Below, in pieces: positions 1,285 through 41,278 of a DNA stretch of 41,278 nt (position 1 is its first letter; every line of letters starts with the position of its first letter). Under the pieces are notes generated by a model. The model was given only the letters and a program-made list of their open reading frames with translations. It did not search any database and was not told the origin of the DNA. The position numbers and the translations under genes were made by a program. Source of the DNA: a virus (lineage: Duplodnaviria > Heunggongvirae > Uroviricota > Caudoviricetes); IMG/VR virus record IMGVR_UViG_3300014682_000025. One strand, written 5' to 3'.

Positions 1285-1887
1285 AATTCACAGGTGTTTT
1301 TTCCCATCCTGTGGTTTCCTTGGCGTTTTCTAGGTTTTTTCAGATAGTTGCATTTTTTAAAAAGCATCCTAAGTTCGATCTCAGTGTCTATCTGGGGCCT
1401 ATTTCTGTCCCATATATGCCCCAAAAAAACTCCCCAACAGATAAGTAGTTTTTTCATGGATTTATGCGTAAAATCAAGAACGGCTGGAAATCATTCAATA
1501 CTCACACTATCGAAAAATTTACCAGCCAACCGCAGCACGTTCTTGCATAAGGCGTGTCTGCGGTTTTTCAACTATTCAGATACATCACTCCCATCACATT
1601 CATTCCTCCGCATCAAAGGCATATAGGCTATATCACCTTGATATTTTTCTTCTTCAGATAAAAACTGTTATCTATGTATACTTTTAAACCCAATCCGTGT
1701 AGAGTCTCTGCATAAGATAGTTTGCAGTTGCCGCTTCAGCTTGCGCCATAAACCGCCTGATTTTTGCTGCCACCTGTTAGCATTCCTGTATACCTGAAAC
1801 GACAATGTTTATCTACGAACTTTAAGAACACCCAAGATAAAAATTGTCAACTATATCATATATAACACATTACTAATTCGAGGCTAT

Positions 1888-2001
1888 ATGAACAGCATAC
1901 TGATAATCACTTCTCTCCTTATCATATTCAGCATTTTTAGTCATGCCCTAATAAAATTAGGGATTGGCATATCCAATAACCCAGACAAAACCGATGTATA
2001 A
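1888..2001 (+). CDS. Candidate small hydrophobic peptide, 37 aa ([37 protein letters not shown])
   Basis: ATG with GAGG 4 nt upstream; one predicted TM-like segment; below 60-aa track cutoff; no homology claim. Confidence 0.2.
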
Positions 2002-2069
2002 GCCAACATATCCTGAATCAGACATACAATATCGCAATGAAAATCAATAATATTTTAAGGAATATCTTC

Positions 2070-2303
2070 ATGAAATCAAAAGACACCCTAAAGTGGTTCC
2101 CTGCGCAGCTTCCTGAAGTAAGAATTATCCTAGGGGATGCTGTAGTGGAAGTAGCAAAACAGGGAAGACCTATCAATACCAGAACATTGCTTGATTACAT
2201 TGAAGGAAACATAAAGAAAAAATCATGGCTGGATAACAAAGAATTATTACAAACAGCGATATCAGTTCTTAAAGACAACCAAAATTTAAATGGTAAAATG
2301 TAA
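2070..2303 (+). CDS. ydfK: YdfK-like small prophage protein (77 aa from MKSKDTLKWF)
   Basis: ORF 2037-2303; internal ATG at 2070 preceded by AAGGAA; sequence recognised as YdfK-family. Confidence 0.75.
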   Translation: MKSKDTLKWFPAQLPEVRIILGDAVVEVAKQGRPINTRTLLDYIEGNIKKKSWLDNKELLQTAISVLKDNQNLNGKM

Positions 2304-2532
2304 TATAATAAACTTACTTTTTTATCATTTTTCCACTTTAACAACATTTTGCTCCACTTTTCCACGACCAAACAACTTGAAATCTGGTTAAAATAACACG
2401 CAACACTATTCTTCTTCCTTGAGTCCGCCCGGAACTCGAAAAACAAACCGAGTTAAAGCCATTTTTCACAAAATCGATTTTGGGTCTCACCAAAATTACG
2501 GGGTTGCATACGCATTCGTTTATTTTCGAACG

Positions 2533-2572
2533 TGTACATACAAATATGTACAAAAATAATCAAAATTATTTT
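2533..2572. promoter_or_regulatory. Two adjacent perfect 20-bp dyads (TGTACATA-CAAA-TATGTACA and AAAATAAT-CAAA-ATTATTTT) about 50 bp upstream of pin
   Basis: Read directly from sequence; function unknown. Confidence 0.3.
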
Positions 2573-2619
2573 CTGAGATGCATTATGATATGAACACCAA
2601 TTTCGTATAGAATCTCACT

Positions 2620-3210
2620 ATGTCTCGAATTTTTGCTTACTGTCGGATATCAACGCTGGATCAGACCACCGAAAATCAACGCCGGGAAATCGAAAGTGCA
2701 GGTTTTAAAATCAAACCTCAGCAAATAATCGAAGAACACATTAGCGGCTCAGCAGCAACCAGTGAGCGTCCTGGTTTTAACCGGTTGCTTGCTCGCCTGA
2801 AATGTGGTGATCAATTGATTGTGACAAAACTGGATCGCCTTGGTTGTAATGCAATGGATATCAGGAAAACAGTGGAACAACTGACCGAAACAGGTATCAG
2901 AGTGCATTGCTTAGCATTGGGGGGCATTGACCTGACCAGTCCAACAGGAAAAATGATGATGCAAGTAATTTCAGCAGTCGCTGAATTTGAACGAGACCTT
3001 TTACTTGAACGCACTCATTCCGGGATAGTAAGAGCCCGCGGCGCAGGGAAACGTTTTGGTCGACCACCTGTGTTAAATGAAGAACAGAAACAGGTGGTAT
3101 TCGAACGAATTAAGTCAGGTGTAAGTATAAGTGCCATTGCCCGGGAATTCAAAACCTCGCGGCAAACCATTTTAAGAGCCAAAGCAAAACTTCAGACACC
3201 TGACATATAA
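2620..3210 (+). CDS. pinQ: Serine recombinase / DNA invertase of the Gin/Hin/Pin family, 196 aa
   Basis: N-terminal resolvase catalytic domain (YCRISTLDQ, Ser11) and C-terminal HTH; sits next to tail fibre genes as in Mu, P1 and e14. Confidence 0.9.
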
Positions 3211-3307
3211 AAAATAATCTCGGTGTGAGATGCTTTACGTCTTCCAAGCCCCCTTCCTTGCCGTAAATGGAAAGATACATCTAATTATAGAATTTATATG
3301 TTTTACC

Positions 3308-3883
3308 CTACGGCAGTGCTGGCCATTCAATATCCTGTGCAGTTGACGTATCAACACGGTTCAGCAATACCCGATACTTTTTCCATGCTTCCAGCAACGA
3401 GATTTCTTCCTCCGTTGCAATTTCCAGATCTGCAGCATCCTGAAGCGGCGCAATATGCTCACTGGCTACCTGCATCAGGTTGTTTTTTGTTTCTTCCGCC
3501 TCCCGGATCCGGAACAGTTTTTCTGCTTCCGTATCCTTCACCCAGGCTGTGCCGTTCCACTTCTGAAACTCCCCTTCCGGGGATAACCAGGTGACATTTT
3601 CCGGTAATGGGCCAAGTTCAGAAATAAATAACGCGTCGCCGGAAGCCACGTCATAGACGGTTTTACCCCGATGATCTTCAACGAGATGCCACGATGCCTC
3701 ATCACTGTTGAAAACAGCCACGAAGCCAGCCGGAATATCTGGCGGTGCAATATAGGAACTGTTTGCTGGCAGACCTGTATGAGGCGGAATATATGCGTCA
3801 CCTTCACCAATAAATTCATTAGTTCCTGCCAGCAGATTATAAATTTTTATGGTCCGTGGTTGTTCACTCATTCTGAATGCCAT
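3308..3883 (-). CDS. tfa: Tail fibre assembly protein Tfa, 191 aa
   Basis: N-terminus [24 protein letters not shown] matches lambda Tfa; start overlaps stf stop (ATGA). Confidence 0.85.
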
Positions 3884-6798
3884 TATGCAAGCCTCACAAT
3901 GTAGTTAAATGCGATGTTTTTGACAGTGTTTTCCGCGTTACCAGCAGCGTTAACGGTGATGGTGTGTCCATGTGAGCCAATCGCAACAGAGTGCGTATGA
4001 GCACCAATACCGACAGTATGTGCGTGAGCACCTGCAGATGCAGCTGTGCCGCTGACACTATGAGTGTGCGCTCCTGCAGCACTTGTATTCACACTGGCCG
4101 CAGACACTACCTTATGTACTGACCCATTTTGTGACCACTGGCTGACTGCTGATGCGCCTGTGACACTATGAGTATGGTTTCCGGCACTTGCGGCTGTACC
4201 GCTCACACTGTGCGTATGCGCCCCGGTGTTATTCGTGGATTTAGTGCCGTAATCAAACGACGATGTGGTTTTCGTCCCCAAATCCGTACTGGATGCACTG
4301 GCGCTGTGGGTGTGCGATTTAATGCCGTCCTGTTCCTGAGATAATACGGCCCGACCACTGGCAGGTTTGCCCTTAATCGTCCAGCCACGCATATCAGGGA
4401 TCACGCCTGACGGATAAGCGGTTGCAAGTTTCGGGTAAGCGGATTTGTCAAAAGTCTGCCCCTGCATCAGGGCATAACCAGACGGAACGGTATCTGATGG
4501 CCACGGGATTGGTGCGCCAGGCGGATAAAACTGCTCTGATGGCGTATAGAGTGAATAAACTGTACCGTCCGTTAACCCTTCCGGCTTATTAGCAGAATAT
4601 GCTGGTGACGTATGAATAGTCACGCTGGCATTACTGGTATAATCCCATTGAATATTTACACCAGTCGCATAATTTCCGATTGCAACGTAAATATCGTAAG
4701 TATCACCAGATGTATTGACCCAGGCAAAATTTGTAAACCCTGTCGATGTGCGCTGCCATAAAGCACCAGTAATCCCCTTCGGATTACCATTACCTGCACG
4801 CAAAACAAGTTCAGATATACCTGCCTGTTGAGGTGACCCCACGTTAAATCCCGCGCCACCAATCAACGTAATTGAAACAACAGAACTCGCCTGTGGCATG
4901 GTTACCGTTGCTAATTTGAACCAACCAGCACCACCGCTGAAGGACATTGTTGTTGAGTTAAGCGTACCAATATCTTTCGGCGTCAGTGTTATATCCGCTG
5001 AAAGCGCCTTACCATTCACCTTACGGGCAGAAGGTACCCGACCATTCGCATTATCATTAGCTGCTTTCACTGCTTTCGGTGTCGCGGCAAGCGTTTCAGA
5101 TGCGCTGTTGGTTGCACTACTGAGCTGGACAATTCCTTTTTGTGCTGTCGTAGCGTCCTGAGCAGTATATTTCCCGTTAGCAAGGTCATAGGCTGCCTTT
5201 ACCGACTTTGGCGTTGCCGCCAGCATTTCAGATGTGCTGTTGGTCGCGCTGCTGAGCTGAACTATCCCTTTCTGTGCTGTCGTTGCATCCTGTGCGGTGT
5301 ATTTCCCGTTAGCCAGCTCATACGCGGCCTTAACGGCTTTTGGCGTTGCCGCCAGTGACTCGGAAGTGCTGTTAGTCGCACTGCTGAGCTGTACTATCCC
5401 CTTTTTCGTCGTGCTCGCATCCTCAAGCGCCACGGCGGATGCAATATCCTCTGCCCGTTTTGCCGCTGTCTCGGCGCGCGTTGCCGCGGATTCCGCCGTA
5501 CTTTTGCTCTGAGCTGCCGCCGTCGCACTGCCAGCTGCCTCTGTCGCCTTCGTGGATGCCGTCGTGGCGCTGCCCTTTGCTGCTGACGCCTGTCTGGTCG
5601 CCTCATCTTTTGAAGCAGACGCAGATGATGCCGATGACGCCGCCGAACTGGCGGACGATGCGGCAGCCGTTTTTGAGGATTCTGCGCTGGTTTCCGACGC
5701 TTTCGCGTTCGTCTCGGATGTCTTCGCTGCGGAAGCAGACCTCGCTGCTGCGCTGGCCTGTTCAGTGGCTTCGCCAGCCTTCGTTGTGGCTGTTGAAGCG
5801 GACGATGCGGCGCTTTCTGCCGATTTTCCGGCAGCGGTGGCACTGGCTGAGGCCTGCCCGGCACTTGTTGACGCGGCACTGGCAGACGACGCAGCCGCTG
5901 TTTTTGAGCCTGCCGCAGCTGAGGCGCTCTGTCCCGCTGCCGTCTCAGAAGACCTGGCGTTCGTCTCGGACGTTTTTGCCGCCTTCGCGGAATTTGCTGC
6001 CGCCGTTGCCGAGGAAGCTGCGCTACTGGCGCTCGAGGATGCGTTCGTTTCTGATGATTTTGCCGCCTCTTTTGAAGCCGACGCATCCCGGGCTGAGGTG
6101 GCAGCTTCTGACGCTTTCGTAGTCGCGGTGGATGCAGAAGTGGCGGCTGATTGTTGTGACGCTGCAGCATTCGTTTCTGACGTTTTCGCGGCAGCGGCAC
6201 TGGTAGCTGCCGCGCTTTTTGAGGACTCTGCAGCGGCAGCACTTTTTTCCGCTTCAGTGGCCTTTGTTGATGCCGTTCCTGCGCTGGAAGACGCTGACTG
6301 AGCCGACGAAGCGGCCTGTCCGGCTGACGTGCTGGCTGCACGTGCTGAATCTGCAGCATCAGTCGCATGGGTTGCCGCCTCACGGGCAGATGTGCCGGCA
6401 TCACTGGCTGACTTCTTCGCGGCTGCCGTGTTCTGTGCCACCACGGACGCGTTACGCGCCACCTCTTCCACCATCTGTTCAAAACGGCGCAGTGCCTCCG
6501 GACGGGCATCATCCTCCGTCATGGCACCGAGAAAATCATTCAGCGTACCGGGTTGAGAATCTTCATACACGGTGATGGTCCCGGCATGTGACGGCGGGAA
6601 TCCTTCCACCAACAGAATAACGCTGTACTGCCCGTACTCAACGTCCATGCTGTAACGCCCGGCTTCATCCGGATTTTCTGAGGCCAGCGTGTTCACCACC
6701 ACCGTGGTGCTGTTACGTTTTGCTTTCAGCTGGATTGTGCAGTTCTGTACCGGTTTTCCTGTGCCGTCTTTCAGTACACCTGAAATCTTTACTGCCAT
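3883..6798 (-). CDS. stf: Side tail fibre protein Stf (about 971 aa from MAVKISG), apparently intact
   Basis: Track ORF 3883-6804 starts at GTG; ATG two codons downstream gives lambda-like [12 protein letters not shown]; Ala/Ser/Thr-rich low-complexity region, [11 protein letters not shown] repeats, C-terminal H-x-H repeats. Confidence 0.85.
5045..5425. repeat. About three tandem copies of a 132-bp (44-aa) repeat within stf
   Basis: Repeated DNA and repeated peptide [41 protein letters not shown]; boundaries approximate. Confidence 0.7.
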
Positions 6799-6809
6799 AT
6801 TCACCCCAC

Positions 6810-6835
6810 AAAAAAGCCCGCCTGAACCGGCGGGC
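6810..6835 (-). terminator. Intrinsic-terminator-like hairpin (GCCCGCC...GGCGGGC plus T6) between lom and stf
   Basis: Read from sequence; the T-tract abuts the stf ribosome-binding region. Confidence 0.45.
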
Positions 6836-6862
6836 TGTCATAACACTGTGTTACCTGGCTAA

Positions 6863-7462
6863 TCAGAATTTATAACCAACCCCCACGAAGAACCCGTCAG
6901 TGCGCCAGTCGCCACTGCCGGAGCCTTCATAAGCGATATCAATGGCCACGGATTCGGTCGGGTTAAACTGCACGCCAGCCCCCCACGCCAGAGACGTGTT
7001 GCTGTGGCGACCGTCATCACTTCCGGTCAGCACATCGTGCGTTTTCCCCTTGTTGTCAGTTACGCGGAGATAATCCCCGGAGAAAGTCGACACACGGCTG
7101 TAAGCCACACCCGCCATCGTATACGCGCTGAACCATTCATTCACGCGTACAGACGGCCCCGCCATCACGCTGAACCAGCGGTTACGAACGGAATCTTCAT
7201 GCCAGCGGGTATCGCTGTAACGGGTCAGCTGGCGATTCTTGTCTCCTGCATAGCTGAATGACGTCACCAGCCCCAGTGTGTCCGTAAACTCATAACGGTA
7301 TTTCACGTTAATCCCGTTCAGATCATCGCTGCCGGGAACGTTCGTCGAGGCATGAAGATACCCCGCGCTCAGCGTGGACTGATGTTCAGACGCCCATGCA
7401 GGCGCACCGGATACGGCCAGACAAATGGCTGCGGACAAAATGGCGGCATAAAGTTTACGCAT
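6863..7462 (-). CDS. lom: Lom-like outer membrane beta-barrel protein (Ail/Lom/OmpX family), 199 aa with signal peptide
   Basis: Signal peptide MRKLYAAILSAAICLAVSGAPAWA, C-terminal GVGYKF; position between J and stf as in lambda. Confidence 0.85.
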   Translation of the reverse strand: MRKLYAAILSAAICLAVSGAPAWASEHQSTLSAGYLHASTNVPGSDDLNGINVKYRYEFTDTLGLVTSFSYAGDKNRQLTRYSDTRWHEDSVRNRWFSVMAGPSVRVNEWFSAYTMAGVAYSRVSTFSGDYLRVTDNKGKTHDVLTGSDDGRHSNTSLAWGAGVQFNPTESVAIDIAYEGSGSGDWRTDGFFVGVGYKF

Positions 7463-7528
7463 AATTACCTCTCGCTTTTCTGCAATAAAAAAGGCGTCAT
7501 TTCTGACGCCCGTTCTGGGTTATAAAAT

Positions 7529-10845
<3,317 letters not shown>

Positions 10846-40702: not shown

Positions 40703-41278
40703 ATGGATTTCGACACAATCATGAAAAAGGCTTACGAAGAATACTTCGAAGGCCTTGCCGAAGGCGAAGAAGCTCTCAGCTTCAGTGAGTTTAAACAGGC
40801 ACTCAGAATAAGAATGTGCTCTCACAATGACGCGGAGCACAAATATGAGAAGCAAAATCAGACCGCAGAAAATTTTGTTCTGGAACCCGGAGAAACGCTT
40901 TTCAAAATTCCCGTTACGTGCCCCATTTGCGGTTTTACATCAGAAGAACTTGACGACTCCTGTAACAATCAGGAAACAACCAAGTATGTCGAAGATGATA
41001 CCGAGTGCGCACGAAGAACGATTATATCCACGAGTCCAAACTCCAGGACCAATAAATCTCACTTTGAGAGGGTGATTAATCCACTCCCCCAAACCAATAA
41101 AAAAGATGCCGGAGGACAAAAAACCCAATGGAACAACGGGATATCTGTCAAAAAAAGACGTTCCATTAAAGACAAACAACGCAGCGCCAACAACTGTAAG
41201 CGCTTTATACCAGTAATCAATTTTCATGTTCTTAAGCGGATTTATTGGTGGTTGCGACATTGCTTAATGAATCCTTAA
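40703..41278 (+). CDS. YdfB/YdfC-like protein, 191 aa, reaching the window end
   Basis: ATG at 40703 (MDFDTIMKKAYEEYFEG) with GGTGA upstream; CPICG zinc-ribbon-like motif; stop at 41276-41278. Confidence 0.55.
   Translation: MDFDTIMKKAYEEYFEGLAEGEEALSFSEFKQALRIRMCSHNDAEHKYEKQNQTAENFVLEPGETLFKIPVTCPICGFTSEELDDSCNNQETTKYVEDDTECARRTIISTSPNSRTNKSHFERVINPLPQTNKKDAGGQKTQWNNGISVKKRRSIKDKQRSANNCKRFIPVINFHVLKRIYWWLRHCLMNP

Follow-up and report, generated by a model that had tools for sequence, protein, structure and literature searches.

The DNA invertases of the Din family, among them Gin of Mu, Cin of P1, PinE of e14 and Hin, share the Resolvase and HTH_7 fold, are encoded near tail-fibre genes and have an invertible segment with alternative fibre cassettes, for which orientation polymorphism is seen. 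The segment adjoins the invertase gene and is bounded by two 26-bp crossover sites in inverted orientation; a recombinational enhancer that depends on Fis lies within the 5' part of the gene, Fis sites being too degenerate for recognition by sequence. Members of this family are about 60-80% identical to each other and are interchangeable. Two recombinases of Escherichia coli K-12, PinQ of the Qin prophage and PinR of Rac, carry the public annotation "putative DNA invertase". A 2025 paper also treats them as Pin-type invertases and proposes that PinQ inverts the P segment of e14, blocking adsorption of phage T2 (Kirigo et al., NAR 2025; PMC12529663). A second point of reference is TIME-RES, a mobile unit with the order IR-res-tnpR-IR (IR, inverted repeat) that was captured experimentally (Szuplewska et al. 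2014; PMC4133298). Here we consider a pinQ/pinR-type gene in a stretch of 41,278 nucleotides of Caudoviricetes DNA (IMG/VR record IMGVR_UViG_3300014682_000025), which is called the window throughout. Positions 2420-3253 of the window are, with good confidence, a fossil and non-autonomous cassette of the Tn3 family with this same IR-res-tnpR-IR order. As part of this reading, "PinQ/PinR" would in all likelihood be a stranded cointegrate resolvase (TnpR) and not a tail-fibre invertase.

A search of 5.8 billion proteins places the window protein in a large family whose members are 64-86% identical to it and are in large part encoded on plasmids; relatives at E <= 1e-60 are encoded in 1,643 plasmid records. 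The neighbourhoods of relatives were surveyed at 72 non-E. coli loci of 10 kb each. At 17 loci or more, a full-length open reading frame (ORF) of 994 amino acids lies 159-160 bp upstream of the recombinase gene on the opposite strand, and its domains are the Tn3 transposase DDE domain (DDE_Tnp_Tn3) and DUF4158. Because this divergent Tn3 transposase adjoins them, the relatives can be identified as the TnpR resolvases of a Tn3-family transposon with the arrangement tnpA<-res->tnpR. The window protein is 79% identical to the TnpR of one of these loci (L022) and 78-81% identical to the TnpR relatives, and the recognition helix of the helix-turn-helix (HTH) is invariant across the family, PinQ included. 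The transposon and the window further agree in the collinear order of res sites I, II and III, in the type of 38-bp IR and in the distance of the right IR (IRR) from the stop codon. They differ in that the transposon has tnpA, an intact res site I, intact IRs and Arg76, where the window has Cys. No remnant of tnpA was found in the window. A Tn5403-like transposon is a possible parent, a lead that comes from the label "Tn5403-pinR" on the gene map of one paper.

The family IR was defined from the repeat next to tnpA together with a Hamming scan, the far repeat lying mostly beyond the 10-kb loci; it reads GGGGTCCGCTTGGAAAACGGAAATTATCCCACGCTAAG. An intact mini-element with such ends is present on ColV-type plasmids of E. 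coli (pE15-3, here L005, and L092). In L005 it consists of the left IR (IRL; 5847-5884), res, tnpR (6062-6652) and IRR (6661-6698), and its recombinase is 84% identical to that of the window. The window element, of 834 bp, has the same parts and aligns with this mini-element over its full length; 670 of the 862 columns are identical, there are three small indels, and the IRL is collinear. The IRR starts 8 nt past the stop codon in both. Each relic end is the best match in the window: for IRL the best of 200 shuffles reaches only 24/38, and for IRR none of 200 shuffles of the whole window attains 23/31. The two ends are directly bordered by copies of TTCCT, and a 5-bp target duplication is typical of Tn3-family insertion. 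These junctions are identical in all 16 PinQ-type copies compared, from K-12 Qin and Rac, four phages (Tritos, PhiR68_2 and PhiR63_1 among them) and other Escherichia and Shigella genomes, which points to one ancestral insertion. Mobility of the window copy is unlikely, as judged from its decayed ends.

Two further observations concern the surroundings of the plasmid mini-element. The 8 nt outside its intact IRR (reverse complement TCTTCCTT; L005 6699-6706, also L092) are the same as the 8 nt outside the window IRL (2412-2420), with no homology beyond them. Target preference, chance, or a shared history with the element inverted relative to its flank are all possible. Furthermore, L005 carries a ParE toxin/RHH antitoxin pair (5002-5561) about 290 bp upstream of the IRL; toxin-antitoxin pairs beside res have reportedly been seen in Tn3-family transposons, and this pair resembles them.

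The region between IRL and the recombinase gene can be read against a res consensus, obtained from a gap-free alignment of 65 distinct upstream regions of the family, in which subsites were assigned from conservation and by analogy. The family order is a 26-bp palindrome (site I, TGTMCGAAACCG-NN-CGGTTTCGTACA), a 14-bp spacer, a 32-bp site II, a TATAAT box, site III, about 10 bp, and the ATG. This is the I-II-III order of the Tn3 res (PMC9943657). The window follows the family res without a single gap and with many substitutions, and a conserved -10-like TATGAT lies just upstream of its site III, at 2584-2589. Over the whole res (2507-2610) it keeps 41 of 52 conserved columns, as against 50.3 +/- 1.8 in the 65 family sequences, with a minimum of 45. 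The window res is probably a relic, and a working res is improbable on these figures. The coordinates of all features are collected in Table 1.

A perfect palindrome that overlaps this region, TGTACATAcaaaTATGTACA (2533-2552), was considered as a new crossover site or operator and rejected: it is unique in the window and unconserved among PinQ copies, where TGCACA and TATACA variants occur. It is accounted for by the hexamer TGTACA, itself palindromic, which occurs twice, once as the left half-site of res site II.

Table 1. Features of the fossil cassette and its surroundings (window coordinates).
Feature	Position	Strand	Basis and remarks
Target-site duplication TTCCT, left copy	2415-2419	.	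Abuts outer end of IRL
Degenerate IRL	2420-2457	+	26/38 against IRL of the intact mini-element of plasmid pE15-3 (L005 5847-5884); holds ACCGAG 2447-2452
Relic of res site I (crossover site), most degenerate	2507-2532	+	Consensus TGTCCGAAACCGATCGGTTTCGTACA; 14/26 positions, 11/18 highly conserved columns
Relic of res site II	2547-2578	+	Window TGTACAAAAATAATCAAAATTATTTTCTGAGA, consensus TGTCCGAAAGTAAGTGAAATTAATTTCGTACA; 22/32 positions, 14/17 conserved columns
Relic of res site III	2590-2610	+	14/21 positions, 12/13 conserved columns
pinQ/pinR-type gene (tnpR-derived small serine recombinase, 196 aa)	2620-3210	+	Pfam Resolvase 2.5e-36, HTH_7 3.8e-11
Degenerate IRR, with 3-nt deletion	3219-3253	-	Inner 31 nt: 23/31 against family IR; holds hexamer 3219-3224
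Target-site duplication TTCCT, right copy	3254-3258	.	Abuts outer GGGG end of IRR
ydfK/ynaE-like gene (context only; part of the b-region DNA that received the element)	2037-2303	+	PGAP annotation of identical DNA
tfa (context only, outside the element)	3308-3883	-	Pfam Caudo_TAP
stf, 973 aa (context only, outside the element)	3883-6804	-	Pfam phage_tail_N, Phage_fiber_2, Collar

The protein itself has changed at a position that matters for catalysis. In all 70 relatives compared, the motif KLDRLGR ends in Arg; the window has DRLGC instead of DRLGR, with Cys76 encoded by TGT (2845-2847) where the relatives have CGT. The same Cys76 is found in K-12 PinQ, in K-12 PinR and in an 85%-identical allele (P0009). 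Alignment to the gamma-delta resolvase puts residue 76 at R71 of Tn3 resolvase. Of the catalytic set (Y6, R8, S10, D36, R68 and R71 in Tn3), the counterparts Y7, R9, S11 and R73 are present, E39 stands family-wide at the position of D36, and R71 alone has given way to Cys. In Tn3 resolvase R71 is one of six essential residues; the changes R71A and R71K abolish recombination, and cleavage is about 1000-fold slower (PMC2794168). The PinQ lineage also has 7-10 private changes at otherwise near-invariant columns, where other members have a mean of 0.38, and the ratio of nonsynonymous to synonymous substitution (dN/dS) is 0.37 within the Cys76 clade versus 0.15-0.19 toward TnpR-type relatives. The protein is thus probably catalytically crippled and a very poor recombinase. 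At most it probably still binds DNA, with a putative half-site of about TGTMCGAAA; the two res sites that overlie its promoter, II and III, are examples of candidate targets, since the HTH is intact and these two sites are fairly well preserved.

The allele P0009 (L088 165-755) is a second prophage version of the gene beside the same tfa, and between its coding sequence and that of the window there are 60 differences in 591 nt, 34 of them nonsynonymous. The flanks, over about 165 nt on the upstream side and about 100 nt on the downstream side, are almost unchanged. The divergence appears confined to the gene. Four proteins from short metagenome contigs (P0004-P0007), 91-93% identical, join a TnpR- or plasmid-like N-terminal half with Arg76 to a PinQ-like C-terminal half; these may be real recombinants or assembly chimeras.

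According to the history that we propose, a res-tnpR cassette would have entered an ancestral lambdoid phage by a single transposition, landing in the b region with ydfK on one side and the tail-fibre genes on the other and generating the 5-bp duplication TTCCT. It would since have been inherited by phages and prophages of the Rac, Qin and Tritos types. Stranded without a transposase or a partner res, it would then have seen its res site I and both ends decay, and the catalytic Arg (R71 of Tn3 resolvase) would have been replaced by Cys. Nothing would be flipped at the locus, and the adjacency of tfa and stf would be an accident of the landing site.

This history starts from the observed homology, collinear anatomy, target duplication and Arg-to-Cys change, and from the observed absence of Din sites and of orientation polymorphism. 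Several points weigh against it. Compared with each other, the two relic ends agree at only about 49%, and they can be recognized only by way of their intact relatives. An empty site (ydfK...TTCCT...tfa, ...CTTCTTCCTTGCCGTAAATGG...) was not found in E. coli genomes, phages, IMG/VR viral contigs or metagenomes, and the insertion is therefore deduced solely from its ends and duplication. About half of all complete E. coli genomes carry an intact ORF, and with a dN/dS of 0.37 in the Cys76 clade some function may be retained. The effect of Cys76 on the catalysis of this particular protein is presumed by extension from Tn3 resolvase. Finally, peer-reviewed work describes PinQ-dependent phenotypes, with more P inversion when PinQ is overproduced (PMC12529663).

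One alternative that takes account of these last points is that the gene was exapted for a non-catalytic DNA-binding protein, which may repress its own promoter or host genes, or modulate PinE. The reported phenotypes would then be explained without any strand exchange by PinQ. We regard this as a tentative possibility, rather unlikely on balance. The whole stretch 2304-3307 is collinear in 2,675 of 5,426 complete E. coli genomes, and about 49% of them have an intact ORF with at least 99% conservation; this fits a retained function, and it may also simply reflect a recent spread of the phage module. Cys76 is kept in an allele that has diverged by 15%, with the dN/dS of 0.37 mentioned above, a value that is nevertheless relaxed in comparison to the 0.15-0.19 toward TnpR-type relatives. 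The HTH is fully conserved, and the res sites over the promoter, II (14/17) and III (12/13), are better kept than site I (11/18). A preprint claims that PinR represses antioxidant genes, and the phenotypes of the NAR paper need PinE for inversion. Binding and regulation by the window protein are predictions from the sequence. In a more specific form, half of E. coli would be keeping an Arg-less TnpR as a non-catalytic binder that biases the PinE-driven inversion of e14 or represses host genes, which we consider speculative and a little more doubtful. If it were true, the published "recombinase-activated phage defence" would run via a dead TnpR fossil acting as a regulator, and not via an invertase.

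The published mechanism itself, in which PinQ is an active trans invertase that leaves neighbouring DNA alone and flips the 1,797-bp P segment of e14 at its pix sites, yields a chimeric StfE2 and thus blocks T2 adsorption, is in our view improbable. Three experimental observations are in its favour: overproduction of PinQ lifts P inversion from about 30% to 88% as determined by quantitative PCR, T2 survivors bear the inverted P segment, and deletion of pinQ lowers survival, an effect that is complemented (PMC12529663). In Table S4 of the same paper, inversion is 30% in the wild type and still 22 +/- 3% in the pinQ deletion, but it is only 1.5 +/- 0.2% in a pinE deletion that is pinQ+ and pinR+; PinQ overproduction in the pinE deletion is not among the strains listed in that table (PMC12529663). 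With 1.5% inversion in the presence of pinQ and pinR, PinE looks like the enzyme, and direct catalysis by PinQ becomes doubtful. Selection with T2 could also enrich cells that were already inverted. The protein comparison argues in the same direction: PinQ is without the catalytic Arg, and its HTH helix is invariant with that of the TnpR relatives, whose half-site (TGTMCGAAA) is different from the pix half-site TTCTCCCAAACC. The distribution of the genes does not match either. The PinQ module is present in 2,675 of 5,426 genomes, whereas pinE-like genes occur in 1,404, with about 525 records at least 95% identical to e14. The module is therefore about twice as common as pinE-like genes, and e14 cannot explain its distribution.

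It could further be imagined that the resolvase still works, either on multimers of the phage or prophage or in recombination between the Rac and Qin copies. In favour, a res-like region and the gene are both present, and K-12 holds two copies in inverted orientation, in Rac and Qin. Tn3 and gamma-delta resolvases need directly repeated res sites on one supercoiled molecule. With the catalytic Arg missing, a degenerate site I, a single res per prophage and no rearranged junctions seen in the genome junction query, such activity is highly improbable.

The original prediction had taken the gene for a Pin invertase of the Gin/Cin type, adjoining tfa across some 98 bp, with a single stf/tfa set and no obvious invertible segment, and had suggested that inverted ACCGAG hexamers on either side of pin might be gix-like cores. 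The description of the locus is confirmed in most respects. The gap between pin and tfa measures 97 bp (3211-3307), the tfa/stf pair being convergent with the recombinase gene. No second tfa or stf C-terminus exists in the 41-kb window, as tblastn with Tfa and the C-terminus of Stf matches only these themselves. The hexamers lie where they were placed, at 2447-2452 on the plus strand and, as the complement, at 3219-3224. The assignment to the Din invertases does not hold. Against the 79% identity to a Tn3-family TnpR, the window protein reaches only 38% with PinE and 36-37% with the Gin, Cin and Hin proteins of phages; PinE and Gin share 78% with each other. No NCBIfam equivalog reached its cut-off with the window protein, the best being the Mpi invertase with 85 bits against a cut-off of 272. 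Among solved structures, Gin scores slightly higher (105 bits) than the gamma-delta resolvase (82 bits). The 12-2-12 layout of the Din hix, gix and pix sites is also that of the family res site I; the half-site sequence differs.

As to crossover sites, ACCGAG occurs 11 times in the window where 13.6 +/- 3.9 are expected. A Din half-site weight matrix was prepared from the pix sites of e14, read from K-12 (L002), and from gix and hix sites. Real pix, gix and hixL sites score 27-30 bits with this matrix, whereas the 26-bp sites around the two hexamers score -13.4 and -5.2. Across the window the best site has 13.0 bits, compared to a shuffled maximum of 11.3 +/- 2.1, and nothing stands above chance. 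A search of the whole window with the pix 16-mer at up to 3 mismatches gave a single match, at 41082, attributable to chance. Inverted repeats in 1285-7600 are limited to weak pairs of 71-80% complementarity, none of which bounds a plausible segment. The hexamer pair is thus rejected as gix cores, on its chance frequency and its matrix scores. A flip of pin between the hexamers was likewise rejected. It was queried through the junction expected from inversion between 2450 and 3221 only, at a coverage threshold of at least 80%: the inverted junction occurs in 0 of the 2,810 E. coli genomes in which its two halves are both present, and the native order is collinear in 2,675. This agrees with the BLAST analysis of Kirigo et al., who saw no inversions inside Qin or Rac (PMC12529663). 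The original prediction was right that an invertible segment is absent: no Din-like sites, second tfa/stf set or inverted junction were found.

The hexamers lie in the inner parts of the relic ends, at repeat positions 28-33 and 33-38, respectively. On comparison with the family IR, their identity is accidental and the inverted ends are real. What had been proposed as a vestigial switch or as degenerate crossover sites is indeed vestigial, and degenerate inverted sequences do flank pin; they appear to be relic transposon ends and not crossover sites. A degenerated tail-fibre switch of the Gin/Cin/Pin type is thus hardly credible, even with the adjacency of tfa and stf, the name "pin", the Gin score and the inverted hexamers in its favour, given the identities above, the lack of a Din-like site above chance, the different repeat positions of the two hexamers, a gene that is convergent with tfa where pinE is divergent from its own invertible segment, and the presence of the same element beside unrelated fibre genes in phage Tritos.

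Thousands of E. coli chromosomes contain DNA that is 99-100% identical to that of the window, and PGAP names the genes there ynfT, ydfK, pinQ and tfaQ. Identity of the window protein to those of K-12 is 99% for PinQ and 100% for PinR. At its left end the window has ydfJ, which indicates a prophage in the Qin position; this insertion position is common to K-12 Qin, and the window represents a fuller prophage at the same place. The window has the same neighbours as pinQ and pinR in K-12 (ynfT/ynaM, ydfK/ynaE, pin, tfa and stf), and nothing essential differs. Free lambdoid phages (Tritos, HannyBb, PhiR68_2 and PhiR63_1) have the same gene between the tail-fibre genes and attP/int, and in Tritos the element adjoins quite different fibre genes. 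The linkage of ydfK to the element holds in all copies, including those in which ydfK has only 78% identity.

The modular nature of this region is also apparent from homology breakpoints among E. coli prophages, which recur at window positions 3319-3321 and 3419-3430. Where prophages have the same tfa and lack the pin module, they diverge at a point 11-13 bp beyond the stop codon of tfa, at a distance of 60 bp rightward from the target duplication. The segment consisting of ynfT, ydfK, the element and these 60 bp thus moves as a single block. Prophages with the same pin module and another tfa diverge inside the last 40 or so codons of tfa. Phage PhiR68_2 (L004 2994-3179) has a 61-aa tfa fragment together with ybcY, appY and ompT to the left of ynaE-pin, an arrangement that equals a DLP12-like right end joined to the pin module. 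The prophage of strain EC32 (L001) is 100% identical to the window over 1285-3900 and no longer identical beyond stf; it has HK97-type head genes, and its tape-measure and J genes are of other sizes. The window is therefore a different mosaic with the same right-end module. A run of 10 N at 9913-9922 splits the ORF of the host-specificity (J) gene in the window.

From K-12 it was already known that the gene exists and that no invertible segment lies beside it. In the literature we found no paper that identifies PinQ/PinR with the remains of a Tn3-family IR-res-tnpR-IR cassette bounded by a target duplication, nor one that mentions the Arg-to-Cys change or the doubt on the trans-invertase mechanism that results from it; neither the IR sequence nor a stated link between PinQ/PinR and TnpR was found. 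The element is a decayed member of the TIME-RES type and not a new kind of system. It has in common with TIME-RES the 38-bp IRs, res and tnpR, the lack of a transposase, and an AT-rich target with a duplication of 5-6 bp (PMC4133298). TIME-RES originates from Tn5563 of Pseudomonas, encodes a resolvase of 309 aa and is active (PMC4133298), whereas the element in the window belongs to another lineage of the Tn3 family, measures 834 bp, is decayed and has become fixed in lambdoid phages of enterobacteria. A cassette of this type is thereby documented as fixed in temperate phages.

PinQ and PinR are K-12 genes that databases list as "putative DNA invertases", and the 2025 NAR paper builds a phage-defence paradigm on active invertases. 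A stranded Tn3-family resolvase would explain why there is a "Pin" that has nothing to flip, a puzzle of long standing, and would correct the annotation of a module that is present in about half of the complete E. coli genomes. It also leads to clear predictions: inversion of e14 by PinQ should fail where PinE is missing, and reversion by C76R should give the protein back its resolvase activity on the ancestral res.

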